A stretch of DNA of 64,000 nucleotides from NCBI GenBank assembly GCA_034431195.1, contig DAOUDP010000016.1:1839-65838 (forward strand), given 5' to 3'. Source of the stretch: Dehalococcoidia bacterium. Lineage in GTDB: Bacteria > Chloroflexota > Dehalococcoidia > GIF9 > AB-539-J10. The notes beneath the pieces were generated by a model. The model did not search any database. It was not told where the DNA came from and was given only the letters and a program-made list of their open reading frames with translations. Each line of letters begins with the position of its first letter. Position 1 is the stretch's first letter. Position numbers and translations under genes: made by a program. Of the stretch, positions 3,347 through 20,931 are shown one piece after another.

Positions 3347-4597
3347 TCAGGATTCACCATCCTTTTTGAGTATATAGTCCCGGGCAATTTTGAGAGCTGC
3401 CTCGACCACCTCTGGTTCGATATATTTAGTCAGATCATTCGGGGTGTGATACACCAATCCTTCACTGAACTTACTGATATCGAAACTGATGCCGGCCATA
3501 TTGGTAGCCTCGACTCCAATTTTGCCAAATTCAGCAGCATCTGTGCTCCCGGCGCCAAAAGGCATACTGGAAATCTTGGCAACATAGCCCAATGATTTTG
3601 CAACATCGACGCACTCCTGTGCCATTTCATGGGAAAGTTTCACAGAATTATTCAGATCACGATGGGAAAAGTTGAGGTCTTTGACTTTGTAAAGTGTATC
3701 GATGTTCAAGACGTAAGTCTTCGTATGGAGTAATTCTGAGTCATGCTTTCTGCAAAAGGCGCGTGCCCCCCGGAGCCCGGCTTCTTCAGCATCGAAAGAT
3801 GCCATCATTAGCCGAGTATGCCGCAGCGGGTTCATACCTGCTTGCTTAGCATCGTGAAAAAGCTTTGCGGTCTCATTGGTAATTGCTACGGCAATCATGT
3901 TATCGCCTGCGGCTGGAGATACCTGCCGGGTTGTAAAGAATGCCAGGGGAAGGACAAAAATGGCACCCACTAGCAGCGCCAACGGTAGCCAGGGATGTGC
4001 CCACGCAGGAACAGAACCACGAAATACTACCAACGCGGTTTCTATCAAGGAAACAAGGAAACCAAGCAGTAGAAACGCTATCCCTGCAGTGATAAATCTA
4101 GCATAGTATTTTGGGGCGTGGGCAATAAGTTGAAACACGTAGGCGGCGTCATGATGTCCGCTGACGATGATTTGCTGCCTCACCTCGCCCTCTGGCTCAA
4201 TGGAGCCGAAAACGTTATGGCCGGTGGCTTTGGGAAAGAGTGGGTCAAATGTTTCCCAATAGCGCACGAATTGGCAATAGAATACAAGTATTCCTAATGA
4301 GTAACCGATGAGCGCAGGCAAAGGGAACTGGAGATATAATAGAATGGAGCAAATAAAATAAAGAACGACCAGTGCGGGGATATATTTTAGAAAGCTCTTC
4401 GGGTGGACGGTGAAATCTTCAATTCGCACGGAGGCCGCGTCACAATTTTTGGTGAATTCCTCTTTTATCCGGCTGGCAGCATTCCGGCAAGCCTCTGTAC
4501 CTGCCAGGCGGTTAGCATATTTTTCTACGACTTCGTTAGTAAAATCAAAGACGCGTTGCACATGACTTTTATTTATGTCTAAGATAGAGTTTGCCAT
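3347..4597 (-). CDS. M28 family Zn-peptidase with membrane-spanning insertion
   Basis: 416 aa. M28 motifs in order GHHDAAY (HxD), AAGDNMIAV, SFDAEEAGLRGA (EE), VYHTPNDLT (terminal His). About 5 hydrophobic helices flank and interrupt the catalytic motifs. Confidence 0.55.
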   Translation of the reverse strand: MANSILDINKSHVQRVFDFTNEVVEKYANRLAGTEACRNAASRIKEEFTKNCDAASVRIEDFTVHPKSFLKYIPALVVLYFICSILLYLQFPLPALIGYSLGILVFYCQFVRYWETFDPLFPKATGHNVFGSIEPEGEVRQQIIVSGHHDAAYVFQLIAHAPKYYARFITAGIAFLLLGFLVSLIETALVVFRGSVPAWAHPWLPLALLVGAIFVLPLAFFTTRQVSPAAGDNMIAVAITNETAKLFHDAKQAGMNPLRHTRLMMASFDAEEAGLRGARAFCRKHDSELLHTKTYVLNIDTLYKVKDLNFSHRDLNNSVKLSHEMAQECVDVAKSLGYVAKISSMPFGAGSTDAAEFGKIGVEATNMAGISFDISKFSEGLVYHTPNDLTKYIEPEVVEAALKIARDYILKKDGES

Positions 4598-4682
4598 ATC
4601 AGAACAGTATGCTCATGTTAAGGCTCTGCTCAGCAGGTGTCAAGGCGTTTAACGAACCGAAAACCAGCTGCTACCGCTTCAT

Positions 4683-5072
4683 TCAATGCCGGCGTTTCCT
4701 GTACTTCTTATCCTCGATGCTACGCAGAGTCCTCTCATCAATGCCAAAGTGATGAGCTATCTCGTGGCACACTACTTCAGTTATTTTCACGCCGATCTCC
4801 TCATTAGAGTGACACTGCCCCTCTATAGGCTTCCGGAAGATGCTTATCTTATCGGGCGGAACCAGCCCATATCCTCTGCCACGCTTAGTTTGGGGCACGC
4901 CCTCGTAAAGCCCCAATAATTGGCTGCGATGGCCAAGTTTCACTTTCTTAAGCTGTCCTGATGTTGGCCAGTCCTCTACAATCACATCAACATTTTCAAG
5001 CTTATTGCGAAACTCAAGAGGCAGATTATCAATGGCTTCCACCACGAGAGTCTCAAATTTCTCTCTGTCCAT
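4683..5072 (-). CDS. zincin-like metallopeptidase family protein (DUF1025-type)
   Basis: 129 aa; motif VVCHEIAHHFG (HExxH-like Zn site). Confidence 0.5.
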   Translation of the reverse strand: MDREKFETLVVEAIDNLPLEFRNKLENVDVIVEDWPTSGQLKKVKLGHRSQLLGLYEGVPQTKRGRGYGLVPPDKISIFRKPIEGQCHSNEEIGVKITEVVCHEIAHHFGIDERTLRSIEDKKYRKRRH

Positions 5073-5162
5073 ATCACCGCTACTAGACTATCTAGCTTCC
5101 ATTATTATAGCCCAATTTCTTGGGACTGTGTCTTTGTCCATGACATACTCAGGACACAATCC

Positions 5163-5290
5163 ATCGTATTGTTTACTCCAGAGTAGCCCATTGCTCTGAT
5201 TACTTTTCAGGACCGCACGATTTGAACTTACCCCAGCAGTCAGAACTCGAGCCAGAGCCTAGGATTTTACTTATCTCTTGCTAGAACTAC
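5163..5290 (+). repeat. ~130-bp interspersed element, copy 2
   Basis: See 1160-1290. Confidence 0.45.
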
Positions 5291-5546
5291 CTCTCTTTCC
5301 AAAGTTGTAATTACATTCCGCATGGGCAGAGATACATCACTGCAACTACCTTGACAACGCAACTTAGAATACCGGTGGCACAGGGATATTGTTTTTGGCT
5401 TCCCATTACCCAATGTAGCGGTTTGTTTGCTACTCATCAGGCAAAGGTGGAGCTCGCATAGTTATCGTATTGCAAACTCTGAAACTCGACGTTATTATAC
5501 GAGCCAGGGATGATGCGTCGCACAAGTAATCCCGGGCAAAGGAGGT

Positions 5547-6344
5547 ATGTTCTTGAAGGAATTCTCGCAGCAAAGACTAGCAGGTAGAATAGCGTTGGTG
5601 ACGGGGAGTGGTTCTGGGATCGGTAGGGCAATCAGTCTACGGTATGCCAGGGAAGGGGCTGATATTATAGTGGATGATATAAATCTGGAAGGGGCTAACG
5701 AGACAGCCAAGGGGATTGAGGAGTTGGGTAGAAAGGCTATGGTGATAAGGGCTGATGTCGGCGTATCGGCCGAGGTTGAAGCGATGCTTGAAAAAGCCTA
5801 CGGTGAGTGGGGAAGAATAGACATTATGGTAAACAACGCCGGGATCAGTGGTTTACCGTATGTTCTTATCGAGCAAACCGAGGAAGAATGGGATCGCGTT
5901 ATGAACACAAACCTCAAGGGTGTGTGGCTCTGTTCAAAGTTTGCTGCTATAAGGATGCTAAAGCAGGAAAGGAAGTTTGGTTCCCTGAGGGGGAAGATAA
6001 TAAACGTTGCCTCCATCGCTGGTAAGACGGCGACACCACACATAGGTGCCTATTCAGCGAGCAAATTCGGAGTGATAGCCGTAACTCAAGTGTTCGCTAA
6101 AGAGTTAGCTCCCGATATAACCGTAAACGCTATCTGCCCTGGTTTCCATGTTACCGGCATATATTTCAACAGTGAGGAGGTAGTGAGAGGCTCCATGAAG
6201 ACTTTCAAAGCTCCAGAAATTCTCCTCGAAAGGCTTGGGAGAGCCGAAGACGTTGCCCCCTTGGCTGCTTTCCTGGCATCGGAAGACAGCGACTACATGA
6301 CCGGTCAGGCCATAAACATTGACGGGGGAGTAGCGTTCCATTAG
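5547..6344 (+). CDS. SDR family oxidoreductase (3-oxoacyl-ACP reductase-like)
   Basis: 265 aa; TGSGSGIGRA Rossmann motif, NNAG, catalytic S…YSASK. Confidence 0.85.
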   Translation: MFLKEFSQQRLAGRIALVTGSGSGIGRAISLRYAREGADIIVDDINLEGANETAKGIEELGRKAMVIRADVGVSAEVEAMLEKAYGEWGRIDIMVNNAGISGLPYVLIEQTEEEWDRVMNTNLKGVWLCSKFAAIRMLKQERKFGSLRGKIINVASIAGKTATPHIGAYSASKFGVIAVTQVFAKELAPDITVNAICPGFHVTGIYFNSEEVVRGSMKTFKAPEILLERLGRAEDVAPLAAFLASEDSDYMTGQAINIDGGVAFH

Positions 6345-6397
6345 GTAGCTCCGCGCTAACCTTCATTTTGAATTAATATAAACGAGGTCAATCACAA

Positions 6398-6565
6398 TGA
6401 ATAAACGGAATGTGTCGCTGGTATTAGGCATTTTAATGTGTTTAATAGCAGCCATCATAATGGGAGGAAATTTCCTGGGAGAGAGGACTATACCAGCAGC
6501 AATCACTCTAGGGATAGTAGGAATAGTCATAATAGCCACTTCACGGAAAGCTGGGAAATCCTGAA
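6398..6565 (+). CDS. small two-helix membrane protein (hypothetical)
   Basis: Manual ORF (<60 aa, not in track): MNKRNVSLVLGILMCLIAAIIMGGNFLGERTIPAAITLGIVGIVIIATSRKAGKS. Weak support. Confidence 0.2.
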
Positions 6566-6591
6566 GGAAACTTGGCATCTGTTTCTAGAAT

Positions 6592-6835
6592 AGGCTGCCT
6601 TTCTCAAGCTTCTGGAGACTGGGGTCAATCAATGAGAGCTTTCAATTCTGGGGACATAATACCCGAGTTAAATCACCTCTACCTTGACGGGAGAGGATTA
6701 AGGTGAGGGTGTTAAACGCAGGTAGGTACTTGCCACGCCGACAAAGAAGTAGATCAAGTGCTGTACCAGTATTGGGGACATAATACTTGATTTGTAGTAG
6801 GCTTGGTTAGTATTGTGTTCCTGGAATTCATAGGA
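6592..6835 (+). repeat. Mosaic repeat R1: PPC-gene tail fragment (…LKLLETGVNQ*) + module b + module d; related to 7183-7590 and 14266-14830
   Basis: Direct comparison of the three loci: shared strings gtcaatcaatgagagctttcaattctggggacataatacccgagttaaatc.cctctaccttgacgggagaggattaaggtgagggtgtta and tgatttgtagtagg…tagtattg.gttcct. Confidence 0.7.
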
Positions 6836-6843
6836 GGTTAACA

Positions 6844-7296
6844 ATGAAAGCATGTGAAGGACGAATAGGCCGGGTTTTCGTGATACGGCTTGAGGATGGG
6901 GATGTGGTGCCCGAATGTATTGAGCGTTTTGCCGAGGGGAGCGGAGTATTTGTGGGACATGCTATCTTAGTGGGTGGAATTGGAGCTGGTGATGTTGTTG
7001 TTGGCCCGCGACGTTCAGAAGAAAGGCCGCCAACGCCAATGCTCTTGCCCATTGACGGAGCACATGAGGTGGTGGGAGTGGGCGTACTCGCTCCCGGTGA
7101 AGATGGCAAACCGGCTCTGCATATCCATGCTGCGCTGGGACGGGCAGGACAAACCATGACCGGATGCCTGCGGTATGGCGTCACGACATGGCTTATAGGG
7201 GAGGTTATCCTTTATGAAATCCTCGGCGCGGACGTGGCGCGTATCAAGGACGAGCAGAGTGGCTTCGAGCTTCTGGAGCCTGGGATCAATCAATGA
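6844..7296 (+). CDS. PPC (DUF296) domain protein
   Basis: 150 aa. Gly/Val-rich PPC-type core (…GHAILVGGIGAGDVVVGP…HIHAALG…). Its last ~37 codons are duplicated at 14493-14616. Confidence 0.55.
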   Translation: MKACEGRIGRVFVIRLEDGDVVPECIERFAEGSGVFVGHAILVGGIGAGDVVVGPRRSEERPPTPMLLPIDGAHEVVGVGVLAPGEDGKPALHIHAALGRAGQTMTGCLRYGVTTWLIGEVILYEILGADVARIKDEQSGFELLEPGINQ

Positions 7297-7590
7297 GAGC
7301 TTTTTATTCTAGGGAATGATAACGGATGTCATTGCGAGCCCCTTCTCCCTCTGTCATTGCGAGCCAAAGGCGTGGCAATCTAGGTGGCAGGGTATTCAAT
7401 GGCATTTGAGAAATGATACCTGATTTGTACTACGCCTAACTAGTATTGTGTCATCGGAAATCCTCCCCTTTCTTAAAGTCTCCAATCGTGGCCCTTCTAA
7501 GAAAGCCCGTTTGTTCCTTTCGTTTTGCAAATCCAACCAAGGTCTCGTGCGTATAGTTCTGGAAGAAATTTGGGAAATTGCTGCATTAAA
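7183..7590 (+). repeat. Repeat block R2: genuine PPC 3' end + module c x2 (tgtcattgcgagcc…) + module d + module e
   Basis: 7183-7296 is ~93 % identical to 14493-14616. Module c (gtcattgcgagcc.aaggcgtggcaatc.aggtggcagggtattcaatggcatttgagaaatgat) matches 14723-14788. Module e (7520-7590) matches 14266-14336. Confidence 0.7.
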
Positions 7591-7666
7591 ATGGCTGGTC
7601 CTTCAGCTTAACCTGCCGCGGGGACTGATTTTGGATGGCTGGAGTGAATGAGCCATGGTATAGTGT

Positions 7667-8446
7667 GTGTATCGATACGATATATGGCTGATGAAACAAC
7701 GGACTGTTACCAGAGGAAGGTTAGATGATGTTTTGGCCAGCCCCAATACTGTATCTAAAACAGATGTTATAACCATATATGCTAGCCCTGGTTCCTTTCC
7801 AGGTTATATTAACAGCATATCACCCGAGGCGATTTCCAGTGCATGTATTAATGAAATTAAACAGTCAGCTAATCTCGAGGTTGTTATCAAAAAAGCTGGG
7901 AGATACAAAACGGGAGCTGCTATATTCTGGGATGCACATGAAAATAAACATATAGTGTTGCCGCCATTCCCTATTGCTGAGGATAGAACTTTAATTAACC
8001 AGCTTGATACTTCACTCTTGTTTAAAGTATTGGATAGAAAATACACCATAGGTGTCATGCTGGTAACATGGGGTTCGTATGCTGTAGGAGTTTTCGACGG
8101 TGGCAATCTCATACAATCAAAAGTGGGCACTGGATATATACATAAGGAGCATAAGAAGGGAGGCAGAAGTCAAAAGAGATTTGCCAGGAGAACCGAAGAG
8201 CAAAAGAAGGATTTTCTGAGGAAAGTTGGTAACAGAATCGATGAGATATTCGCGCAATGTACCTTAGACCATATCTTCTTTGGTGGAAATAGGTTAATTC
8301 TTAAGCCACTATTGCCAGAGTGTCGATATCTAGAATCAAAAACTGAGAAAATCTCAAGAAGGATTTTAGATGTAAGACGTGCTGACAGGGAAGTCTTGAA
8401 TAATAGTCTATCGGAGATAATGAAATCGGTAGTCTTTAGTTTTTGA
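7667..8446 (+). CDS. bacterial eRF1/Vms1-like release-factor family protein (baeRF1; likely acVLRF1-type peptidyl-tRNA hydrolase)
   Basis: 259 aa. HKKGGRSQKRFARRTEEQKKDFLRKVGNRIDEIF matches the eRF1 catalytic loop [28 protein letters not shown], with GGQ altered to GG-R-SQ. Low GC relative to neighbours. Confidence 0.6.
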   Translation: MYRYDIWLMKQRTVTRGRLDDVLASPNTVSKTDVITIYASPGSFPGYINSISPEAISSACINEIKQSANLEVVIKKAGRYKTGAAIFWDAHENKHIVLPPFPIAEDRTLINQLDTSLLFKVLDRKYTIGVMLVTWGSYAVGVFDGGNLIQSKVGTGYIHKEHKKGGRSQKRFARRTEEQKKDFLRKVGNRIDEIFAQCTLDHIFFGGNRLILKPLLPECRYLESKTEKISRRILDVRRADREVLNNSLSEIMKSVVFSF

Positions 8447-8597
8447 GGCACTGCTACAGCGCAATTGCTCTCGTCGTGTGGCACTGATGAGAGCTTTAGA
8501 CGGAACGTCATATTTTCCTGAATGGCTACAAGATAATAGTAGACCTAAAACCGTTCTCATCCAGGCAAAGCAATCACGATTAATGAACCTGTCTCCG

Positions 8598-9044
8598 CTA
8601 CTTTTTAGGAGTCCAGTGTAATCTTGAAATAAACATCCCAACGTTACTCTTGTACTCACAATATTCCTGCCCAAATCGATGTTCTAGCTCCCTTTCTTCC
8701 CATAGTACTATCTGCAGGTAAACTATGGCTAACACCGCAATGGTCGCTATCAGACCAGTAATAGACTTAAAGCCCATAGCTACACTAAACGATAAGACTG
8801 CGCAGGATAAGCAAACCGAATGCCTGATGTAAGAATAAATGCCTTTTGTAACTAGCATGGATTTATCGCGGCCAATCAGGATCTTTGGTGGGCAGGCTTT
8901 CAGTCCCAGAGCCAGGAGCGACATGCCCAGGATGGCAAGAAAAGCACATGCCAAATAACTTGCCCAATCCGCCAGTGGCAATAAAGGCCAACCGAATTTA
9001 TTAGTAAAGAAACATACACCGAATACCACTATAACCCAGGGCAC
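8598..9044 (-). CDS. isoprenylcysteine carboxyl methyltransferase (ICMT/PEMT)-family membrane methyltransferase
   Basis: 148 aa, 4 predicted TM helices. C-terminal …VTKGIYSYIRHSVCLS…EERELEHRFGQEY is typical of ICMT-family SAM-binding tails. Confidence 0.55.
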   Translation of the reverse strand: MPWVIVVFGVCFFTNKFGWPLLPLADWASYLACAFLAILGMSLLALGLKACPPKILIGRDKSMLVTKGIYSYIRHSVCLSCAVLSFSVAMGFKSITGLIATIAVLAIVYLQIVLWEERELEHRFGQEYCEYKSNVGMFISRLHWTPKK

Positions 9045-9509
9045 CTTATGCCTCCCGCTTACTTAATCGCTGTAAATCGATTATTGAAAGCAGTTTCGCC
9101 AGTTCTCTATTCCTTGTGAAACTCTCTTTCCAGTTTCATATCCGTATTCGAATCTCAGCCTCTGTAATTCATTTTGATAACTACAGCTATGGCGAGAAGA
9201 TTTGTTGTCTGATGATGCAAATTAGCTTTTTGTTCTACCTGTGTTAAACCCTTCCTTGTTGTTGCATTATAGTACAATTGTCTTCTGAAGAGAGGAACTC
9301 CGTTATTCAGAAGCTCGCTTGGACTGTGAAGCACAGATGTTTGATGCTTTGTAAACAAAGTCGCATGAATAGTTCTGGCGTGCTTGGTAACTCCAGGGTC
9401 GCCATCACTTGGGTTATATGACACGTTATCTGTGGCCGACTTCACTGGCTGAAATGTCCATGAGAAGGCTGGACAAAAACGCAGAATATCAGTATCATCG
9501 AAAGGCATA

Positions 9510-10526
9510 ATGATAGCGGAGATGAGAAAGGGCGCCACTACAGCGCAGGTAAATGCGGTGGTGCGGCGTGCCAAGTCGCTGGGACTGAGTGTCCAGTTGA
9601 ACTTGGGCACGGAAAAAACGGTGGTGGCCATGCTGGGGAGTGATACAGGGAAGCTGTCCACAGATATCTTCGCCGTGCTTCCTGGGGTGGAGAGTGTGAC
9701 CCGGATTATGAAACCCTATAAGCTTGCCTCCCGGGAATTCAAGGCAGAGGACAGCCTGGTTTCCATTAATGGAATCGAGTTTGGGGGCAGGCGCATTGTA
9801 GTGATGGCAGGGCCCTGTGCTGTGGAGAGCGAGGAGCAGCTTATGAGAGCGGTCAGGGCTGTGAAGAACTCCGGCGCCTCTATTGTCCGTGGTGGAGTGT
9901 TCAAACCACGTACCTCTCCCTTTAGCTTTCAGGGCCTGGAGAAGGCTGGCCTGGAGTTGCTGGCGCTGGTCAGGCAGCGGTTCAGCATACCCGTAGTCAC
10001 CGAAGTGGTAGACCCTCACGATGTTGATGAGGTATCCAAGTATGTTGATATCCTTCAAGTCGGGGCCCGAAATATGCAAAACTTCGCCTTACTGACCGAG
10101 ATCGGAAAGAGCAAGCGCCCTGTTCTGCTGAAGCGGGGGTTCTCGTGCACTGTTGCTGAGTGGCTTACAGCAGCCGATTACCTGCTCTCGGGGGGGAATG
10201 ACCAGGTTATCCTGTGTGAGAGGGGTATCAGGACCTTTGAGGACAGCACTCGCTTTTCCCTTGATGTCTGCTCTATACCCGTGGTCAAGAAATTCAGCCA
10301 CTTGCCTGTAGTCGTCGATCCCAGTCATGCTGCGGGCCACTACTCCTTTGTCCCGGCTATAGCCAAGGCCGCGGTTGCTGCTGGGGCCGACGGGCTCCTC
10401 ATCGAAGTTCACCCCAACCCCAAGCAGGCCCTAATGGATGGCCTCCAGTCCCTCACTCCATCGGATTTCGCCAGGTTGATGAAAGAGCTCAGGCTAGTTG
10501 CCAAATCGGTAGGCCGATCTATCTAG
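9510..10526 (+). CDS. 3-deoxy-7-phosphoheptulonate (DAHP) synthase, type I-beta with N-terminal ferredoxin-like regulatory domain
   Basis: 338 aa. …INGIEFGGRRIVVMAGPCAVESEEQLM…KPRTSPFSFQGLG… matches the KDO8PS/DAHPS I-beta family. The start may lie a few codons downstream. Confidence 0.8.
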   Translation: MIAEMRKGATTAQVNAVVRRAKSLGLSVQLNLGTEKTVVAMLGSDTGKLSTDIFAVLPGVESVTRIMKPYKLASREFKAEDSLVSINGIEFGGRRIVVMAGPCAVESEEQLMRAVRAVKNSGASIVRGGVFKPRTSPFSFQGLEKAGLELLALVRQRFSIPVVTEVVDPHDVDEVSKYVDILQVGARNMQNFALLTEIGKSKRPVLLKRGFSCTVAEWLTAADYLLSGGNDQVILCERGIRTFEDSTRFSLDVCSIPVVKKFSHLPVVVDPSHAAGHYSFVPAIAKAAVAAGADGLLIEVHPNPKQALMDGLQSLTPSDFARLMKELRLVAKSVGRSI

Positions 10527-10894
10527 TGTAGGGCATAGGCGTACCTCAACAGCGGCAGCGGCATCACCTGTTAAGAGGAGTTGGCTCATTTGACCCAGCT
10601 ATCTGTTGGCCGAATACCGCATGGCTTGGCTTAGGTTCTTGATGGTTGGCTCGTGTTAAGGCTTAGAAACGGATTGGACATTCCTCCCGTACGTGAGCAA
10701 AAGATAGAGGAGCTCAAAGTCTCATAGGTGGGCGGCTGAGTTTTCGCCTGTTTCATGGACAGGCCTAATGGGGGCTTGCCGGGCTGCATTTGAGGGCCCT
10801 TATCGGGGTGGGAAACAATCCTGGATGGCAAGAGGCAACCTAGTTTTTAATCGTTCCCAATCCACATCGCAGCAGGCACATAAGGATTGAGATC

Positions 10895-13348
10895 CTACTC
10901 TGACCAGTCTTTGGTTGCAGTGGGGAGACTCATACGGGAGACCTGCCTGATGGCAGGTATCTGGGAAACAAGGAGGATGACCAGCGCGGACACACAGGCG
11001 ATAATATAAGACCTGGGGAAGATAATTGCAGTCATGCTGAAAATATCCATCTCAACCTGGGCCATGAAGTAATTGGCAATATAACATCCCAGCGGAATAC
11101 CGATAGCAACCCCCAGGCAGCCTATGAGCAGGTTCTCCAGGGTGAGGATGATGACTAGCCGGGACTGGCTCATGCCCACGGCGCGCATAATGGCAATCTC
11201 CCGCCTCCGCTCAAGCACATTCACCGTCACTCCGTTGAAGATAATTGCCATTCCCAGGGCGAAGCCCATGGCTAGCATCACGCCGATGAAAGCCCAGAAG
11301 AAGCCCATCAGTTCATCTACGAAGCGCTTTGCCTCGCCGGAGAACTCTATTGAGGCGGTCTTGGGAAGCCTGTAAAGCCTTTCCATGAGCGCTGCCGATG
11401 GCTCACCGTCGAAGCGTAGCAGCACCCCGGTGGCTGCCCCGGGCGACCGTAGAAGCTCTTGCGCCTCCTCAAGCGGCATGAAAGCCCTGCCGCCCAGTGG
11501 CTCATTGATGAACCCTGCCAGCGTCTTTTCCGTTTCCCCAACCGAGCCTACAACAGGTTCCAGGTGAATCTCATCGCCGGGTTCAGCACCCAGCTTGTTT
11601 TTCAAAGGGATGGAGAGCAGTATACCGTCTTCGACGACGGTGGTGGGATGACCCTCCGGCGTCAAGAGGGTGTACATAGATGACCCTTTCGGCAGTCCCA
11701 GAATGCTGCTATCGGCTACCTGGTCTCCGCTCTGAAGGCGGTAGGGCAGCTCAAGCACAGGCTCGGCTTCCTGTATTCCCTGGAGGTGCTCGATGTAAGA
11801 GGCGGTTGTCGCTGCTCCCTGACCCTGGAAATGGAGCTTGGCATCATAGTTCTGAATGACTTCGAACTGGGTATACATGAGAGACTCCGTGGCGTCCACG
11901 AACGACAAAGAGACCAGGATCAGGGCAATAGCTGAAGCTACTCCCATGGCCATAAAAAAACTCCGCCGCAGGTTGCGGAAGAAATTCCGGAGAGGCAATT
12001 TCAGGACGCTGGGAAGCAGGGAAACAAAGGGCAGCAGGACTTCGAGCAGGGTGTGGTGGCCGGCACGCGGTACAGGAGGGCGCATTGCCTCCGCAGGGCA
12101 CATTCTGGCTGTCGCCCATGCGGGAAGGAGTCCCGCAGTCAGCGGGACGATAATCCCGATAAGCGCGCCTAGACCTACTATATACCAGTGTGGCTCCACC
12201 ACGACGAACGGCAGCTTGAGCTGGGCGGCATAAACGCTGGTGAGAAAGCTGGCTATGGTGTGACCGAGCAGTGCCCCAAGCACTGAACCGATTACTCCCA
12301 CCACCAGGGCAAATCCCATGTAGTGAAACATAATCTGGAGGGCGCGGTAGCCGAGGGCTCGCATCAGACCAATCTGCGCACGCTGTGACTCCACCAGGCG
12401 GTTCAGGAGAACGTAGATGGCAAGTGCAGCCATGGAAAGGAAGAGCAGCGGAAACAGCACGGCTAGCTGTCTGAATCCATCCACATCCTGCTTCAGGAGG
12501 CTGTTGCTGGGCTGGTCTTCTCTCGCAATCATGTAAGCTGTGCGAACGCCCTGGATGATATCTATCTTCCTGGTGCTGATGGCAATGGGCTCGTCCTTGG
12601 ATGTTAGTCTCATTATGCTATAGCGTCGAAGGACACGGCTGACCTCGCTGAGAGCCTGGGTGGGGTCTGTTCCCGCTTCGAGGAGCAGGTTGACTTCGTT
12701 CACACTGCCCTTCAAGCTGAAGAGGTCCTCAGCTCTTTCCCGGGGCATGAAGATAACGCCGAAGGTACGCGCCGTGGTGAATAACTCCTGGGCACTTTTG
12801 GTCACCCAGATATATTCAGGGCTGACCACTGTGCCTGCTATTCTGAAGCGTACCTTGCTGCTGTCTCTCTCAATGGTGAGCCAGTCGCCAGGATATAGCT
12901 GGTGATATTCGGCAAAGCGCTTCTCCAGTAGTATCTCGCGCTGGGCGCCGGGAGACAGGTAACTGCCGCTCTCTATGCGCACATCATTTATTTCGGGATG
13001 CTCACCTGATGGTAGTGAGATGACCCTTCCCGATACCTTCTCACCAGTCTCCAGCTGCAGGTCGATGGTTACATCTCCCACAATGCGACCCTGTGCCACT
13101 ACGCCGGAAACATCATTCATTTCTGTGATAGCCCTGAGGGGCAGATAATCCACCGATATCCAGTAGTCTGCCATGCGCAACTGCTCATAGGAGCCTTCAT
13201 AAGAGCTGTCCAGGTTCTGGTATGCTTCGTAGGAGCCCACGAAGGTAGCTATGCCAACAATGATGATGAGTACCACGGCGCCAAACTGTGCTCTGGCTGA
13301 GGTTAGATCGCGGAGCAGCTTACGATGTAGCTTGGGCAGAGCTACCAT
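10895..13348 (-). CDS. ABC transporter permease, MacB-like with two FtsX domains and large extracytoplasmic domains
   Basis: 817 aa, 2 x (TM + large loop + 3 TM) topology. Start overlaps the ATPase gene (13342-13348). Confidence 0.8.
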   Translation of the reverse strand: MVALPKLHRKLLRDLTSARAQFGAVVLIIIVGIATFVGSYEAYQNLDSSYEGSYEQLRMADYWISVDYLPLRAITEMNDVSGVVAQGRIVGDVTIDLQLETGEKVSGRVISLPSGEHPEINDVRIESGSYLSPGAQREILLEKRFAEYHQLYPGDWLTIERDSSKVRFRIAGTVVSPEYIWVTKSAQELFTTARTFGVIFMPRERAEDLFSLKGSVNEVNLLLEAGTDPTQALSEVSRVLRRYSIMRLTSKDEPIAISTRKIDIIQGVRTAYMIAREDQPSNSLLKQDVDGFRQLAVLFPLLFLSMAALAIYVLLNRLVESQRAQIGLMRALGYRALQIMFHYMGFALVVGVIGSVLGALLGHTIASFLTSVYAAQLKLPFVVVEPHWYIVGLGALIGIIVPLTAGLLPAWATARMCPAEAMRPPVPRAGHHTLLEVLLPFVSLLPSVLKLPLRNFFRNLRRSFFMAMGVASAIALILVSLSFVDATESLMYTQFEVIQNYDAKLHFQGQGAATTASYIEHLQGIQEAEPVLELPYRLQSGDQVADSSILGLPKGSSMYTLLTPEGHPTTVVEDGILLSIPLKNKLGAEPGDEIHLEPVVGSVGETEKTLAGFINEPLGGRAFMPLEEAQELLRSPGAATGVLLRFDGEPSAALMERLYRLPKTASIEFSGEAKRFVDELMGFFWAFIGVMLAMGFALGMAIIFNGVTVNVLERRREIAIMRAVGMSQSRLVIILTLENLLIGCLGVAIGIPLGCYIANYFMAQVEMDIFSMTAIIFPRSYIIACVSALVILLVSQIPAIRQVSRMSLPTATKDWSE

Positions 13349-14088
13349 TTGAGATCCTCAGGGTCCATTGGCTGGTTGTTGTGGATTGTCCCGGCAATCT
13401 GGCCGTCGCGCAGGCGCACCACACGGTCGGCAATGGCGCCTATAGCGGAATTGTGAGTGACTACCACTACGACCTTTCCCTTCGTTTCGTTGAGCATCCT
13501 CAGCAGCTTGTAAATGCGTTTGCCTGTCTCGAAGTCCAGGGTGCCTGTGGGTTCATCACAGAGGAGAATCGGCGGGTCAGTGGCCAGGGCCCTGGCTATG
13601 GCCACTCGCTGGTTCTCGCCGCCCGACAGCTCGCTTGGGAAATGCTTCATGCGCTCTTCCAAGCCTACCTCGTGTAGTATCTCTTCAGCAGACCTGTGAT
13701 GCTTCACCAACTCAGCGGCGAACTCGACATTTTCCGTGGCGGTGAGGGTTGGAATCAGATTGAAGAACTGGAAGATGAAGCCGATTTGCGTGCGTCGAAA
13801 ATTGGTGAGCTGGGACTGGCTCAGTTTCGTGATGTCGGTGTCGTTGACTATAATGCGGCCTGAGGTGGGAGAGTCCAGGCCTCCAATCAGGTTGAGCAGC
13901 GTGGTCTTTCCAGAACCACTGGGCCCTAAGAAGACGATGAATTCTCCTGCCATCACCTCGAAGGTGACGTCTCTTAGCGCCGGTACGAGAATCTTGCCCA
14001 TCTGGTAGTTCCTGGAAACCTTTTCTAATTTGATTGCTGGTTTCCTGGAATTTTGCTTGGCTGTTACCAGTTCCGAGGCATCGGCCAT
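13342..14088 (-). CDS. ABC transporter ATP-binding protein (MacB/LolD-like)
   Basis: 248 aa; Walker [10 protein letters not shown], signature [15 protein letters not shown], Walker B LLCDEPTG. Confidence 0.85.
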
Positions 14089-14265
14089 CGACTGCTTTCC
14101 TTTGCTGTGCTATGTAGCCAGCGCATGCTGCTGGGTCATCGGATTGACATGATTGGCTCGCGCCACTTGCCTCTCCTTGTGCGGACACGGGAGATTTTCC
14201 TCCCAGCTCATCGGGCTATGTTAACGCCGTTGCTCTCAAGCTGTCAACGCTAGGTACGGGGCATT

Positions 14266-14830
14266 TCGTTCTGCAATTTCAACCAACGTCTCGTGCGTAT
14301 AGTTCTGGAAGAAACTTGGGAAATTGCTGCATTTCCTCTTTATTATGCTTGCGTAAAGCGCTGCGATAGAGCCGAGGCGTCTTTGCTGGGAGTCGAAATG
14401 TCGAGCGCATCTGCGTTCCGTAGGATTCCTCCTGATACTCGTGAACAAGCCAGGCGATGGGCACGTCGTCCTGACCGAGGATACTGGCTGCCACGACATG
14501 GCTTGTAGGGGAGGTTATCCTCTATGAAATCCTCGGCGCGGACATGGCGCGTATCAAGGACGAGCAGAGTGGCTTCGAGCTTCTGGAGCCTCGGGTCAAT
14601 CAATGAGAGCTTTCAATTCTGGGGACATAATACCCGAGTTAAATCTCCTCTACCTTGACGGGAGAGGATTAAGGTGAGGGTGTTAGATGCAGATGGACAC
14701 GTGTCGCAATAATATGGTTGGGTGTCATTGCGAGCCGAAGGCGTGGCAATCCAGGTGGCAGGGTATTCAATGGCATTTGAGAAATGATGCTTGATTTGTA
14801 GTAGGTCTGATTAGTATTGCGTTCCTAACC
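14266..14830 (+). repeat. Repeat block R3: module e + duplicated PPC 3' fragment + modules b, c, d
   Basis: 14266-14336 matches 7520-7590; 14493-14616 matches 7183-7296; 14617-14692 matches 6640-6716; 14723-14830 matches 7351-7458 and 6770-6835. Confidence 0.7.
14493..14616 (+). pseudogene. duplicated 3' fragment of the PPC/DUF296 gene (TTWLVGEVILYEILGADMARIKDEQSGFELLEPRVNQ*)
   Basis: In-frame copy of the last ~37 codons of gene 6844-7296 with about 8 substitutions; no upstream coding continuation. Confidence 0.6.
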
Positions 14831-14833
14831 ACA

Positions 14834-14870
14834 CGAGATTGCTTCGTCGCCTACGCTCCTCGCAATGACA
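14834..14870 (+). repeat. copy of the gagattgcttcg…ctcgcaatgaca hairpin repeat family
   Basis: Shares termini with 24926-24955, 27424-27485, 59261-59415 and the tgtcattgcgag copies in R2/R3. Confidence 0.6.
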
Positions 14871-14929
14871 GAAGGAGGCACGCGGCCTTTTGAGAAAGCC
14901 CATTTCTTGCTACAATTGAGCGCCGGGCA

Positions 14930-15158
14930 AATGAGGTACTTTCTAGGCGTCGATATCGGCTCTGTCAACGCCAAGCTGTCCCTCATCGATGAGGATGGCA
15001 GGGTTGTTCAGTTTGACGCTGAGAAAGTAAGCTCCAGCTCCAGGGCCACAGTCACTTCACTCATCGCTAGGCTAGGCGAGATATTCAATCTGGAACAGAT
15101 TGTCGCCGCAACCAATGAATTCAAGACTCCTCGGCCGGAGTCCCCCACCACTTCTTGA
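14930..15158 (+). pseudogene. N-terminal fragment of a BadF/BadG/BcrA/BcrD-type activase ATPase gene
   Basis: MRYFLGVDIGSVNAKLSLIDEDGRVV… parallels the N-terminus of gene 35153-36124 (MKGYLGVDVGSVTTKLALLDEHEQLI…). The frame collapses after ~60 aa and runs into rarA. Confidence 0.45.
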
Positions 15159-16464
15159 GCCTGGCGGCGATCTCCTTTTCATAACCCTGGTCGCCGGGGA
15201 GATAGTAGCGCTTTCCGTGAAGGGATGAGGGCAGGTTTTGCTGCTTGACAAAATGGCCAGGATAATCGTGGGCATATTTATAGCCCTTGCCATGTCCCAT
15301 CTGGCGCATCAAGCCAGTTACCGGGTTACGCAAATGCAGCGGCACTGGCTCGTTTCGGCCATGCTGTATATCTTCCTGAACCCGAGAATAAGCCTGGTAC
15401 AACGAGTTGCTTTTGGGAGCAGTTGCCAGATAGACCACGGCTTCAGCTAAAGCTAGATTGCCTTCAGGCAAACCCACAAAGTGCACTGCTTGCTGGGCAG
15501 TTACCGCTATTGTCAGGGCTTGTGGGTCAGCCATGCCCACATCCTCAGAGGCGAAGCGCACGAGCCGGCGGGCGATGTAGAGAGAGTCCTCACCGGCTTC
15601 AAGCATACGCCCCAACCAATACAAAGCAGCGTCTGGATCCGAGCCACGCAAGGACTTGTGGAGGGCCGAAATCAGGTCATAGTGCTGGTCGCCACTTTTG
15701 TCATACAGTAAAGCACGGTGCTGCAGCGCCTCCTCAATGGCCGGCAGGCCTATCGGGCGCCGCCCCTCGCTGTCAGGCAAAGTAGCAAATGTCGCCATCT
15801 CCAGGGCATTCAACGCTACCCGAGCATCTCCATTGGACATAGCCACCAGGTGTTTCACAGCCTCCTCAGCTATATCAACTTTGAACTCCCCCAGTCCCCT
15901 TTCCTCATCCTTAACAGCCCGCTCCACGATGACCTTGATTTCCTGGTCACTCAGCAGATTCAGCCAGAAGGTACGGCACCGAGAAAGGAGCGGCGCAATA
16001 ACCTCGAAGGAGGGATTTTCTGTGGTGGCCCCAATTAAAGTTACCGTGCCGTTTTCCACGAAAGGCAGTACAGCATCCTGCTGCGCCTTATTAAAGCGGT
16101 GAATCTCGTCAACAAAAAGAATTGTCCTCTGCCCCGATACCCTTAACCGTTTCCTGGCTTCACCGATAACATGTCGTAAATCGGCTACCCCAGCACTTAC
16201 CGCACTAAGAGGACTGAAGTAAGCCTTGGTGACACTGGCAATAATCTGGGCCAGAGTCGTTTTGCCACTGCCCGGCGGCCCCCACAAAATTATGGAGGGC
16301 AACTGGTCTGCTTCGATGCATTTGCGGAGCACGCGCCCTTCAGCAACTAAATGCTCCTGTCCCACAAACTCAGCAAAAGTCCGCGGGCGCACCCTTGCCG
16401 CCAGAGGCATGCTGCGAGGCAGATCATCTCCCTCAGGTAGATCAAAAAGAGGTAAATTCTCCAT
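15121..16464 (-). CDS. rarA: replication-associated recombination protein A (AAA+ ATPase)
   Basis: 447 aa; Walker A GPPGSGKTT, MgsA/RarA C-terminal domain. Confidence 0.85.
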   Translation of the reverse strand: MENLPLFDLPEGDDLPRSMPLAARVRPRTFAEFVGQEHLVAEGRVLRKCIEADQLPSIILWGPPGSGKTTLAQIIASVTKAYFSPLSAVSAGVADLRHVIGEARKRLRVSGQRTILFVDEIHRFNKAQQDAVLPFVENGTVTLIGATTENPSFEVIAPLLSRCRTFWLNLLSDQEIKVIVERAVKDEERGLGEFKVDIAEEAVKHLVAMSNGDARVALNALEMATFATLPDSEGRRPIGLPAIEEALQHRALLYDKSGDQHYDLISALHKSLRGSDPDAALYWLGRMLEAGEDSLYIARRLVRFASEDVGMADPQALTIAVTAQQAVHFVGLPEGNLALAEAVVYLATAPKSNSLYQAYSRVQEDIQHGRNEPVPLHLRNPVTGLMRQMGHGKGYKYAHDYPGHFVKQQNLPSSLHGKRYYLPGDQGYEKEIAARLKKWWGTPAEES

Positions 16465-16768
16465 TACTTACCCTTCCAGGCGAGTTAACATAATTATACC
16501 AACGGCCAGCCAATGACGCACATATGGCAAAGCGGTGTATTATATCAGAGAAGTATAGCTTTAACTCTAAGCTTCAATACGCTCCTACTAGCCTATTTCA
16601 ACAGGCTATCCACCAAAACTGAGCACCTACCCAATATTTTGCAGGCCGTTGTTGACTTTTCAGAGCGATTAGAGTACTTTTCTCGTCACTCACGTAAGAC
16701 ATAACTCACATACATAAAACTATCTCCTGAGTTACAATTAGTTTAAATAGACCAGGAGGAGGTGTAGT

Positions 16769-17272
16769 ATGCGCAATACCAAAGATAATTTGCAGTCTGC
16801 TTTTGCTGGAGAAAGCCAGGCTAACCGTAAGTATCTATTCTTTGCCGAAAAAGCCGAACAGGAAGGGTACAAACAGATACCAAAGTTGTTTCGTGCCGCA
16901 GCCGATGCCGAGACGGTGCACGCCAAAAATCACCTGAAGGTTATGCAAGGGATAAAGTCAACCAAAGAAAATCTGCTAGCTGCGAAGGGTGGCGAGAATT
17001 ATGAGTTTGTTGAAATGTATCCCGCATTCATAAAGCAGGCTGAGGTCGAAGGTGAAGACAAAGCCAGAGACAGCTTTGACCTGGCAAATAAGGTCGAGCG
17101 GATTCATCATGGTTTGTTTGAAACTGCCCTGAGTAAGATTGAGAAGGGTGAGGCCATTGAGGAAAAACCAATTTACGTCTGCCAGTATTGTGGCAACACG
17201 GTTGAGGGGGAAGCCCCCGAAAAATGTCCCATTTGCGGAGCGCCCAAGAAAATGTTCAAGCTCGTAGAGTAA
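16769..17272 (+). CDS. rbr: rubrerythrin
   Basis: 167 aa; ferritin-like diiron ExxH motifs plus C-terminal rubredoxin-like CQYCG…CPICG; RBS aggagg. Confidence 0.9.
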   Translation: MRNTKDNLQSAFAGESQANRKYLFFAEKAEQEGYKQIPKLFRAAADAETVHAKNHLKVMQGIKSTKENLLAAKGGENYEFVEMYPAFIKQAEVEGEDKARDSFDLANKVERIHHGLFETALSKIEKGEAIEEKPIYVCQYCGNTVEGEAPEKCPICGAPKKMFKLVE

Positions 17273-17385
17273 ACTAGCTCGACGAAATCCCGGTGTATGA
17301 CAGGAATGTGGCTGGTGGATTGGACGGTAAACGAAGGATACCAGAATGGTCCAGTGACACGTTGGGTTGGTGCAGGAGGGCAAGA

Positions 17386-17646
17386 ATGGAGCGAATATAC
17401 GAAAATGAAAGAATAAGGGTAATTTGGGATCCCGACAAATGCATGCATTCCGGTATTTGTACTGAAGGCCTTCCACAGGTCTTCGATATATACAAACGCC
17501 CCTGGGTAGACACAAATGCTGCGGCCGTTGAAGATATGAAGCGCGTTATTGACGCTTGCCCCTCTGGAGCACTGAGATACGAAGTGCCCAACGAACCTGA
17601 CCATGCAAGAAGTGGTGGGGATAGAGACGTCACCAAAACTGAGTAA
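17386..17646 (+). CDS. divergent 4Fe-4S mono-cluster protein (Fer4_19-like)
   Basis: Track ORF 17293-17646 trimmed to the internal ATG at 17386 (RBS aggaggg, 5-nt spacing). IRVIWDPDKCMHSGICTEGLPQVFD…IDACPSGALRY is a single-cluster ferredoxin fold. Confidence 0.5.
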   Translation: MERIYENERIRVIWDPDKCMHSGICTEGLPQVFDIYKRPWVDTNAAAVEDMKRVIDACPSGALRYEVPNEPDHARSGGDRDVTKTE

Positions 17647-17725
17647 AACGACGGAGGTGGAATAATTCTTCACATTTCTTCATAATTACACCACTACCTG
17701 TAAGCTTATAGGGAGGTGATGCGAA

Positions 17726-17947
17726 ATGGCCGAGATAAAGGTGGATTGCACAAGTGAAACTTGCCCCGTTCCTTTAGTTGAAACCCGCAAGGCTTTAAGG
17801 AAAGCGAAAGAAGGCGATGTTGTGGAGGTTATCGGCACCCATCTCGCTTCCAAGAAAGAGATACCAATGGCCGTCAAGGCTTTGGGACTGGAACTCATTG
17901 ATGTGCAAGAGGAAGGCGGGGTGTGGAGAATAAGAATACGCAGGTAG
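17726..17947 (+). CDS. tusA: TusA-like sulfurtransferase (SirA/YedF/YeeD family)
   Basis: 73 aa with CPxP motif (DCTSETCPVPLVETRKAL). Confidence 0.7.
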   Translation: MAEIKVDCTSETCPVPLVETRKALRKAKEGDVVEVIGTHLASKKEIPMAVKALGLELIDVQEEGGVWRIRIRR

Positions 17948-17962
17948 CAGGAGGAAATAACT

Positions 17963-18382
17963 ATGGCTGGTAAAGCTACCATAATAGTTCATAGCGGCGA
18001 TATGGATAAGGTGTACAGTGCCCTTATTGTAGCCAATGGGGCGCTTGCAATGGGGATGGAAGCATCACTTTTCTTCACCTTCTGGGGCCTACAGCGTCTC
18101 AAGAAAGGCGGGCTGGAAAAGGGGCCTCTATCGAAGATGAACATGCTTGGCCTCGGCAAATGGATGGTGAAACGGAGGATGAAAAAAGCCGGGGCGGCCT
18201 CTCTGGAGAGGCTCCTTCAAGACTTTAAGGAGCTTGGCGGCAAGATCCTCGCCTGTGACATGACAATGGAGATAATGGAAATAAAGAAGGAAGACCTTCG
18301 TGATGATTTGATATCAGACTACTGTGCAGTCGGTACCTACATAAATGAGGCTAGAGAGTCAACAATAACTCTCTTCATATGA
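17963..18382 (+). CDS. DsrE/DsrF-like sulfur-relay family protein
   Basis: 139 aa; N-terminus KATIIVHSGDMDKVYSALIVANGALAMGMEASLFFTFWGL matches the DsrE/YchN fold. Confidence 0.55.
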   Translation: MAGKATIIVHSGDMDKVYSALIVANGALAMGMEASLFFTFWGLQRLKKGGLEKGPLSKMNMLGLGKWMVKRRMKKAGAASLERLLQDFKELGGKILACDMTMEIMEIKKEDLRDDLISDYCAVGTYINEARESTITLFI

Positions 18383-18394
18383 TGGGAGGAGGAA

Positions 18395-19579
18395 ATGTTA
18401 GGCAGAGTTGTTTACCTGGACAACGCTGCAGCCACCCGTTTGGATGAGCGGGTGCTGGAGGCGATGAGGCCGTATTTCTTCGATACATACGCGGTTGCCA
18501 CCTCGGAGTTTGGCTATTCCCAGGGGATAGAAGCCCGAGAAGTACTGGACGGGGCCAGAGAGGCTATTGCCAGTGCTTTAGGTGCTGCCCCTGAAGAGTT
18601 CATTTTCACCTCGGGAAGTACCGAATCGTCTAACATTGCCCTCAAAGGAGTAGCACTGGCCCTTGGTAAGAAGAAAGACAAACACATAATTGTGTCAAAA
18701 ATCGAGGATTTTCCGGTACTTCACAGCTCACAAGCTCTGGAGAAACAGGGCTTCCAGGTGACCTATCTGGATGTCGATGGCGATGGCTTTGTGGGCCTTG
18801 ACAAGCTCAGAGATTCCATGACAAATGAGACCATTCTGGTTTCCATCCAGCATGCCAACCAGGAAATAGGCACCATCCAGGACATCGAAGGTATCGGTCA
18901 TATCTGTCGTGAGAAGGGGGTGCTTTTTCATACCGATGCCACACATACCTTCCCTTGGGTACCCCTCGACGTGAAGAGGATACCTGTGGATTTGGTAACT
19001 GTATCTGCCCACACCATCCACGGTCCAAAGGGCATAGGAGGCCTGTACATCCGTCAAGGAACACAGATAGCTAAGTGGGTAGACGGTGGATTTCAGGAAT
19101 TCAACCTTCGGGCAGGGCTGGAAAACATAGCCGGTGCAGTAGGATTCGCCAAAGCGGTAGAACTGATCACCCCTGAAGAAACCAAGCGACTGCAAGAAAT
19201 GCGTGATCGCCTCATTGACCGTATACTTGCCGAGATACCAAACAGTACACTGAATGGGCATCGCTGGAGGAGACTCCCACAGAATGCTAATATTACCTTC
19301 CACTTTGTGGAGGGCGAATCTATGACCCTGCATCTTGATATGCGTGGCTTTGCCGTGAGCACTGGCTCGGCCTGTTTCAGCCGCTCTCTGGAGGGCAGCC
19401 ACGTTATCTTTGGGATAGGCGGTGACCATGAAAGGACGCATGGCTCGATACGCTTTACCTTCGGGCGTTACAACACTATGGAAGACGTGGGTGCTGTGAT
19501 CCAGGCATTGGCTGAAATAGTGAAGGAGCTGAGAAGTATCAGCCCCTTGGGCAAAAATAAGGAAAAGGAGGAGGGTTAG
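18395..19579 (+). CDS. nifS: cysteine desulfurase (NifS/IscS family)
   Basis: 394 aa; PLP-fold class V with …SAHTIHGPKGIGGLYIR… and active-site STGSACFS. Confidence 0.85.
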   Translation: MLGRVVYLDNAAATRLDERVLEAMRPYFFDTYAVATSEFGYSQGIEAREVLDGAREAIASALGAAPEEFIFTSGSTESSNIALKGVALALGKKKDKHIIVSKIEDFPVLHSSQALEKQGFQVTYLDVDGDGFVGLDKLRDSMTNETILVSIQHANQEIGTIQDIEGIGHICREKGVLFHTDATHTFPWVPLDVKRIPVDLVTVSAHTIHGPKGIGGLYIRQGTQIAKWVDGGFQEFNLRAGLENIAGAVGFAKAVELITPEETKRLQEMRDRLIDRILAEIPNSTLNGHRWRRLPQNANITFHFVEGESMTLHLDMRGFAVSTGSACFSRSLEGSHVIFGIGGDHERTHGSIRFTFGRYNTMEDVGAVIQALAEIVKELRSISPLGKNKEKEEG

Positions 19580-19581
19580 AG

Positions 19582-20217: not shown

Positions 20218-20317
20218 GACCCTAGCTGGAATACAGGGCTCCTGTTACGTGTTGCTTATGAAGTCATGAATCGGTTAGCCAGGTTATTTGGAAAACGCAT
20301 TTCGTTACCTCACCCAG

Positions 20318-20782: not shown

Positions 20783-20931
20783 TTAATATTATAAGTGAAT
20801 ATTGCGCAAATGGGTTATTATAATAAGAAAACAAGTAGGGAGAATCTGGTGGGGAGATGAGCGAGTTTTGCAAGACATAGTTCAGCCTCAGGGGAGGAGA
20901 GAAGCACTTCCTATTTGCTACAATTAGTTAA

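Follow-up and report, generated by a model that had tools for sequence, protein, structure and literature searches.

Rearrangement at microhomologies, of the type called fork stalling and template switching or microhomology-mediated break-induced replication (FoSTeS/MMBIR), and tandem duplication with random loss are processes known from the literature. Homology-facilitated illegitimate recombination has been described in natural transformation of Acinetobacter and Streptococcus, and accessory or defence hotspots that sit between core genes and have no integrase are described for E. coli and Pseudomonas. In Dehalococcoides, the ssrA islands insert at a defined point, are marked by a fixed 20-bp repeat and carry a conserved integration module with the serine recombinases DsiB and DsiA next to attL (PMC3146451). 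Here we consider a window of 64,000 nt from a Dehalococcoidia bacterium (contig DAOUDP010000016.1; all positions are window coordinates), in which the 3' end of an intact PPC/DUF296 gene (PPC) is repeated beyond a segment holding an eRF1-like gene, an ICMT-like methyltransferase gene, a DAHP synthase (DAHPS) gene and a MacB-type exporter. A sequence-only reading had taken this arrangement for the classic scar of site-specific integration into the 3' end of PPC. A duplicated gene tail around a variably present segment does not by itself identify an integrative island, and here the sequences of the joints decide otherwise: we consider it probable, though by no means certain, that the tail copies are by-products of homology- or microhomology-driven rearrangement in a chromosomal hotspot, and not attachment (att) sites.

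The duplicated PPC tail and its joints

The intact PPC gene (PCC domain; Pfam PF03479, E 4.7e-17) lies at 6844-7296 on the forward strand, and its orthologues are 75-97% identical in 30 species-representative genomes. Its last 115 nt plus 19 nt of flank (copy a1, 7182-7315) recur in direct orientation at 14492-14625 (copy a2), over 134 nt at 94% identity and with the in-frame stop included (blastn E 5e-55). The copies differ at exactly 8 positions, 5 of them within the 115 coding nt (from a1 to a2: A>G, T>C, G>A, G>C, A>G, T>C, T>A and A>G), and the about eight substitutions, the retained stop and the peptide tails of the sequence-only reading (TTWLIGEV...EPGINQ and TTWLVGEV...EPRVNQ, each followed by the stop) were all reproduced. 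The longest identical run measures 47 nt (7235-7281), enough for RecA-mediated pop-out. Copy a2 has neither a start codon nor a long open reading frame (ORF) and is a dead gene fragment. The module downstream of the tail is duplicated as well, as had been claimed (7352-7451 and 14723-14822, 90/100 nt identical), and so is a nested repeat (e1, 7518-7587, and e2, 14264-14333; 65/70 nt identical). A third, shorter tail copy (a') stands upstream of PPC, where 6604-6721 matches 14575-14692 at 112/118 nt; its tail part, the last ~33 nt of the gene with the stop, is 6604-6636 on the forward strand.

What lies to the left of a2 is a remnant of another gene. On the reverse strand, 14264-14501 holds e2 and its continuation D', together the 3' part (71 codons) of a DAPG-hydrolase-like pseudogene whose 5' part is missing (Pfam PF18089 positions 199-223 of 223); the ORF at 14279-14494 (71 aa) matches only the last 25 positions of that family. 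For comparison, more than 100 related loci, here numbered with an L, were drawn from one scan of species-representative genomes and one metagenome scan, 146 loci being fetched in all, and the comparison of arrangements covers variants at 89-97% identity to the window. The window at 6778-7587 is collinear with L003 1-822, and 14264-14501 continues the same remnant of L003 and L004 (87-89% identical to L003 753-990 and to L004). At 14501 the window switches from D' into PPC, while the remnant of L003 and L004 runs on uninterrupted. Both parents share the overlap at this joint, a 10-nt stretch (14492-14501, forward strand) that PPC reads as CACGACATGG and the remnant, in L003, L004, L120 and L126, as CAGGACATGG. 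The last two, from two other metagenomes of the Joint Genome Institute (JGI), have the same joint but the remnant's G. The joint of D' with a2 is found in three independent assemblies: European Nucleotide Archive (ENA) ERZ23499022 scaffold_5 (the window), Ga0209979_1003484 and Ga0114930_10006608. As far as its sequence tells, this joint is an illegitimate joining at microhomology and no att border.

Other joints in the segment, and the deletions of sister strains, likewise lie on overlaps of 7-14 nt. The flank of the ABC ATPase gene meets e2 at TTTCGTT (overlap 7-9 nt). A 14-mer at 9224-9237 on the forward strand, AGCTTTTTGTTCTA, matches 7298-7311 at 13/14 positions and is the joint at which the PPC flank is fused to DAHPS in L120, L126, L089 and L139; the consensus of the two sites is AGCTTTTT(A/G)TTCTA. 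The sequence CTGTCAACGC (14241-14250, forward strand) is repeated at 14962-14971, and L139 carries the deletion between these copies (overlap 10-12 nt). Likewise, GCATTTCGTT (14261-14270, forward strand) is repeated at 20297-20306, and the two sites are joined on a 10-nt overlap in L002 and L107, which lack 14271-20296. In L144 the nifU flank meets the PPC tail on the 9-nt overlap GCTTCTGGA.

The remaining pieces of both sites are small. Module b, a small repeat whose core is found again in many related loci, in either orientation, lies at 6637-6732 and again at 14626-14703, both on the forward strand. A promoter-like module of ~57 nt (cP) stands directly upstream of PPC (6771-6822, forward strand), and in relatives it stands between PPC and whichever gene or cargo comes next; there are only three copies in the 64-kb window. 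The left downstream repeat (c1, 7324-7455) comprises two units of the type 'TGTCATTGCGAGCC' (cat units) and cP, and the right one (c2, 14723-14826) one cat unit and cP, both on the forward strand. Next comes D8, a 26-nt remnant of a BadF leader (7493-7518, forward strand; same sequence at 14886-14911), adjoining e1, in which a DAPG-hydrolase-like gene on the reverse strand survives as its last ~23 codons and breaks off at 7587. On the right, D8 leads into an N-terminal BadF/BcrA-type fragment (B', 14886-15158, forward strand) that the 3' end of rarA cuts short; the ORF at 14865-15158 corresponds to the N-terminus of a gene of ~1380 aa in relatives. The rarA (MgsA) gene (15121-16464, reverse strand) is the first of the rarA to nifU block (R), which ends near 20296. 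The right-hand site thus consists of three gene fragments, namely D' on the reverse strand, the PPC tail a2 and B', with b, cat and cP in between.

Arrangements of the locus in relatives

From left to right, the window has PPC, a1, c1, D8, e1, the eRF1-like gene, ICMT, the DAHPS-MacB-ABC block (M), e2 with D', a2, b, c2, B', R, a GNAT gene and DUF1214/DUF1254 genes. In L120 and L126, PPC with a1 is joined directly to M (from 9224), followed by e with D', a2, c, B', R and GNAT. L139 is arranged as L120, except that M runs to 14252 and there meets position 14962 within B', so that e2, D', a2, b and c2 are gone. A further group (L107, L066, L039, L123, L096 and L116) has PPC, its tail and a variant of c, then the eRF1-like gene and M; L107 is the sole contig of this group to reach the right end of M, where GNAT comes next. 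L002 has PPC, its tail, b and a variant of c, followed by M and GNAT. The eRF1-like gene is absent from L120, L126, L089, L002 and L139. Most strain differences are deletions between repeats of 10-14 nt.

Other relatives have the adjacencies expected of the parents. The empty site, for which a search in relatives had been proposed, exists in L059: intact PPC with its tail, then the promoter-like module cP, D8, the BadF fragment and rarA. In L144 and L145, nifU is followed by a 47-nt PPC tail, cat, cP and D8, and then by ICMT, DAHPS and MacB. L060 has PPC, its tail, b, c, ~5 kb of defence-like cargo, a second c, B', R, a 3' fragment of tRNA-fMet and then M, with the DAHPS flank placed after the rarA to nifU block. 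L003, L004 and five metagenome contigs have PPC, its tail, c, D8, e with a longer form of the remnant (D'') and DUF1214/DUF1254. Two block orders therefore exist within one species, B' and R before ICMT and M, and the reverse, and in both orders each block is headed by a PPC tail, cP and D8 (the head module).

The copies within the window lineage are mutually closest: a1 matches a2 at 94% and e1 matches e2 at 93%, against 89-92.5% for comparisons with the copies of L003 and L004. In L005, an intact PPC is accompanied ~5.6 kb downstream by a ~170-nt PPC 3' fragment; the two differ in flank type, the cargo is not that of the window, and the two copies share lineage-specific bases. Both observations point to duplication within the lineage. 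In the window, the flank of a1 lacks module b, as in L003 and L004, and that of a2 has it, as in L002 and L060; the PPC tail of L002 is a hybrid, which reveals allelic recombination inside the repeat.

Two further observations concern this variation. Window positions 9193-9195 coincide with the left breakpoint of the DAHPS block in L060, where it lies behind the tRNA fragment, and in the L107 group, where it lies behind the eRF1-like gene; the window and L144 are continuous across them. The metagenome contig L081 (3-89 and 1870-2413) has, besides an intact PPC, a further PPC 3' end in opposite orientation ~1.8 kb away at the contig edge, possibly as an inversion variant of this hotspot.

Explanations for the tail copies

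Each novel joint overlaps both of its parents by 7-14 nt, within the few to ~15 nt expected of microhomology, and the parental adjacencies occur in L059, L144/L145, L060 and L003/L004 with the five metagenome contigs. From the observed repeats, joints, overlaps and alternative arrangements we infer an order of events and a possible enzymology. One order, that of some strains, is PPC, B', R and ICMT-DAHPS-MacB-ABC, and the other, that of the window lineage, is PPC, the eRF1-like gene where present, ICMT-DAHPS-MacB-ABC, D', the PPC tail, B' and R; the simplest way to get between them would be a tandem duplication or a template switch, with redundant copies lost afterwards. The novel joints would have formed at the short overlaps, 7-9 nt between the ABC flank and the e/D' remnant and 10 nt between D' and the interior of PPC, and the D' piece may be copied filler with an overlap at either end. 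Replication re-entering upstream of its exit point would have the same outcome as tandem duplication and loss, and re-entry into PPC 115 nt upstream of the stop codon would thereby duplicate the tail and the downstream cP module. The joint of the PPC and DAHPS flanks on the 14-mer, absent from the window, would be a later deletion, and subsequent deletions between repeats of 10-14 nt would have given the sister-strain variants. The low-GC eRF1-like gene would be a separate accessory insertion at the same spot, and the repeats are still substrates for RecA-mediated deletion.

Simpler histories do not account for the locus. A single tandem duplication of an L003-type flank, or a single series of deletions from one ancestor, fails to explain both the joint of D8 with e1 on the left and the continuity of D8 with BadF on the right. 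Ancient paralogy of two PPC genes is rejected because the copies cluster by genome. Two candidate ancestral adjacencies were also discarded: the PCC gene near ABC-MacB in L133 is a distant paralogue (27% identical), and the DAHPS near MacB-ABC in L136 is another paralogue (46% identical).

Several points weigh against microhomology-driven rearrangement as the explanation. The full pathway takes several steps, and the available contigs do not yield a unique order for them; a full tandem-duplication intermediate was not seen among the 146 loci fetched. The template of the D' filler is absent elsewhere in the window, and the joint of the rarA to nifU block with GNAT (~20274-20296) is left without an explanation. 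The atypical third codon positions of DAHPS, MacB and ABC make an earlier foreign origin of these genes likely, and import from a close strain is not separable from an event within the genome. The breakpoint at 9193-9195, shared by two apparently independent variants, hints at something more specific.

Such an import is a possible, if rather improbable, alternative. PPC and cargo would have come from another strain by transformation or another route, either through one-ended homologous recombination with illegitimate joining at CACGACATGG or as a circle through a single crossover; the anchor would be PPC or the DUF1214/DUF1254 genes, and either route duplicates it. PPC, with 82-97% nucleotide identity across genomes with unrelated flanks, could serve as such an anchor, and the different flank alleles on a1 and a2, the hybrid tail of L002 and the base composition of DAHPS-MacB-ABC are in keeping with exchange between strains. 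The microhomology joint also fits, and in L005, independently, the intact PPC and the displaced fragment differ in flank type. However, a1 and a2, like e1 and e2, are mutually closest within the window lineage, and all blocks of the segment occur in other orders in sister strains of the same species, so that an outside donor is not needed.

The site downstream of PPC is variable well beyond this species. In ~15 more distant genomes, PPC stands behind YchF and HolA and is followed by 0-3 unrelated genes and then by a radical-SAM or full-length BadF-type gene. The genes in this slot include a type II methyltransferase, a Swt1-like HEPN (PDC-M34B) with AAA/TPR, PIN_12 and DUF4268 (PADLOC candidate PDC-S11), and between PPC and radical-SAM (L006, L011-L013, L016, L019, L020 and L026) they are often defence-like; in L060, a GajA/OLD-type ATPase occupies the slot (3686-5464, reverse complement). 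Five unrelated cargos start directly after ...CTGGAATTC, with which a cP copy ends; in three of these five loci (L011, L020 and L026) a second, diverged cP of ~57 nt precedes the downstream core gene and so frames the slot. No recombinase was seen in the slot of the ~15 related genomes. The site downstream of PPC is a variable plasticity hotspot in Dehalococcoidia, of which the window is an unusually scrambled version.

From this it could be argued that the PPC tail and cP form a portable head, repeatedly placed before relocated or new blocks (PPC, BadF, ICMT-DAHPS, defence cargo), and that the slot is a dedicated cassette-capture site. Capture might proceed through RecA with cP as portable homology, by excision of a cP-cargo circle and Campbell-type re-entry, or through a putative recombinase acting in trans. 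The common start of the five cargos, the recurring breakpoints and the PPC tails of four lengths are compatible with such a system, which we nevertheless regard as unlikely. If true, it would make cP an active capture site and a new integrase-free route of cassette exchange. An integron-like array of attC cassettes was rejected: six cP copies folded as single-stranded DNA gave z-scores of -1.6 to +1.2 against shuffles and are not hairpin-like, and an integrase was absent from the loci with gene calls, a genome-wide search for IntI not being part of this.

The integration scar proposed by the sequence-only reading would today be that of a decayed island, in which an attP with a PPC 3' end restored the gene and displaced the old tail, the integrase being lost or acting in trans. 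Part of that reading stands. The segment is a genuine presence/absence polymorphism among strains, direct repeats of the PPC 3' end enclose it, and there is an empty site, a product that recombination between the repeats would also be expected to give. L005 too has an intact PPC and a displaced 3' fragment with different cargo, the spot is an accessory and defence hotspot in many relatives, tRNA-fMet 3' fragments in related loci suggest that integrative elements were once in the neighbourhood, and the ssrA islands provide a precedent within the class (PMC3146451). The integration scar itself is not supported. An att core should have a fixed extent and border, and the PPC tails measure 33 nt (window, 6604), 47 nt (L144/L145), 124 nt plus flank (window, L120, L126) and ~170 nt (L005); the main repeat is also long, at 134 nt, and its copies are no more than 94% identical. 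Both ends of the supposed element (7297-7587 and 14264-14501) are ordinary chromosomal DNA adjoining PPC in L003 and L004, where element-specific DNA should abut the att sites; the repeat meets, at a microhomology joint, a pseudogene that runs on beyond this point in other genomes, and the main cargo block lies elsewhere in sister strains. Module e, proposed as a second site of excision, is a real repeat but, being the 3' end of the DAPG-hydrolase remnant, no independent att site. The absence of an integrase, already stated in that reading, was confirmed: no site-specific recombinase or integrase is found among the Pfam-assigned ORFs of the segment or in the sister loci with Pfam calls (L139, L144/L145), nor does any recombinase family occur among genes called in the roughly 30 kb that begin ~10 kb upstream of PPC and extend to the acyl-CoA dehydrogenase gene past nifU. 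A decayed island is thus quite unlikely, and the joints of the duplicated tail are better described as recombinational scarring than as integrase-mediated insertion, which leaves the earlier interpretation partly supported.

It is very improbable that the locus is an assembly chimera of co-existing strain variants. Many structural variants do co-exist in public metagenomes, and the window carries both flank alleles. However, overlaps of only 7-14 nt, as at the critical joints, are too short for traversal of a de Bruijn graph, and a second contig on record has the window's neighbours; since the joint of D' with a2 recurs in three independent assemblies and its 10-nt overlap is too short for such traversal, it is no assembly artefact. 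A diversity-generating retroelement, with the gene 3' end as variable repeat and the distal copy as template repeat, would match a near-identical ~115-nt 3'-end copy downstream with a handful of substitutions, but is given practically no credence and counts as refuted, as the distal copy has A at only 2/8 mismatches (no adenine bias), there is no reverse transcriptase among the called genes, and the copy runs past the stop into the flank and is bordered by a pseudogene joint.

Enclosed genes, neighbouring features and known systems

Gene identities were taken from Pfam and agree with the earlier account of the gene content, and the 51 ORFs of the window served as reference for z-scores of G+C content at third codon positions (GC3). 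The acVLRF1/eRF1-like gene (7667-8446, forward strand; PF18859, E 2.4e-23) is AT-rich (GC3 0.35, z -1.5); since it is also present or absent among sister strains, it is an accessory insertion. The PEMT/ICMT-like methyltransferase gene (8598-9044, reverse strand) is contiguous with the DAHPS block in the window and in L144/L145, and its GC3 is average (0.46), so that of the first two genes, both described earlier as AT-richer than their neighbours, only the eRF1-like gene is so. DAHPS (9510-10526, forward strand; GC3 0.66) and the MacB-type permease (10895-13348) and ABC ATPase (13342-14088), which occupy 10895-14088 on the reverse strand, have the three highest GC3 values of the 51 ORFs (0.66-0.68, z +2.6 to +2.9). 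This block is common to all strains of the species seen that reach that far and may be of older foreign origin. A transposon or insertion sequence was rejected as its vehicle: end-to-end alignments were no better than shuffles, there are no terminal inverted or direct repeats, and no transposase is among the Pfam assignments of the segment ORFs. Between DAHPS and MacB lies a HicB/HicA toxin-antitoxin remnant (10620-10897, forward strand; tblastn with HicB and HicA of L002, E 1.6e-11 and 6.3e-9), and an intact HicB/HicA pair is found elsewhere in L002 (12092-12557). In two more distant relatives (L142 9398-12595 and L143 9390-12587), the acVLRF1/eRF1-like gene adjoins a MutS2/Smr gene, a pairing that suggests ribosome rescue; the window's gene has no such partner and stands by itself next to ICMT.

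Small units of the form 'TGTCATTGCGAGCC...GGCAATC', or their inverted partners, occur at 7324-7386, 14723-14757, 14835-14878 and 59305-59348 and in many related loci. The unit at 14835-14878 (forward strand) carries the motif in reverse complement (CTCGCAATGACA for TGTCATTGCGAG), and its related copy at 59305-59348 lies on the other strand. The cat units, their inverted partners ('...CTCGCAATGACA') and module b ('CCTCTACCTTGACGGGAGAGG...GGTGAGGGTG') behave like dispersed palindromic repeats, with an insertion point directly behind the first part of cP, and may contribute to the fragility of the region. An Rfam scan of 5000-22000 (E up to 0.1) gave zero matches, and a scan for consensus promoters and terminators showed no enrichment and did not flag cP. 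Elsewhere in the window, a 48-nt direct repeat (1156-1203 and 5156-5203, 85% identity, 4 kb apart) lies upstream of the studied region. A second pair (61466-61713 and 63102-63346; 149 nt at 93% and 85 nt at 88%, spacing ~1.63 kb) represents tandem paralogous units, the 3' end of a gene for a repeat-rich 439-aa protein with a small upstream ORF, and is unrelated to the PPC locus.

Fragments of 19-55 nt resembling the 3' half of a tRNA, which we take to be tRNA-fMet by likeness to that of E. coli, occur in L060 (reverse strand 312-366), L076, L114, L124, L037, L007, L008, L009 and L065. All are opposite to the orientation of PPC and lie near PPC or just upstream of BadF, and they resemble attachment-site scars left long ago in this neighbourhood by integrative elements. 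ARAGORN found no intact tRNA in the loci with these fragments, and the window has no such fragment. The only intact tRNA in the window is tRNA-Pro (24760-24833), and in 40 related loci only the syntenic tRNA-Pro of L002 and L004 was found; a tRNA-anchored island at this locus is therefore not supported.

The locus is a nucleotide-resolution record, in many natural variants, of gene-order change by short-overlap joining and deletion. The event is of an ordinary, known type, and what is new is a well-documented example of this kind. Its setting is a plasticity hotspot in which relatives keep defence genes, among them a Gabija-like OLD ATPase, a type II methyltransferase, HEPN and PIN.

Like the ssrA islands, the locus has direct repeats of a gene 3' end bounding a variable segment and tail copies in series, in a region variable within the class Dehalococcoidia; unlike them, it has a 134-nt repeat at 94% identity, a microhomology border, tails of variable length and no recombinase. 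It resembles the integrase-less defence hotspots in its conserved left context of YchF and HolA, its varying cargo and the lack of a visible recombinase, and differs in that the slot is framed by ~57-nt cP copies and, in some genomes, by duplicated PPC tails. Homology-facilitated illegitimate recombination, a term that occurs in PMC6382021, would yield such a structure from a conserved anchor (PPC or DUF1214/1254) and a microhomology joint at the other end, whereas the repeat copies here cluster within the lineage. Left breakpoints cluster within the PPC 3' end more than random events usually would, and this sets the locus apart from FoSTeS/MMBIR-type rearrangement, with which it has in common the joints of 7-14 nt, the filler copied from nearby, the swapped neighbouring blocks and the deletions between short direct repeats.

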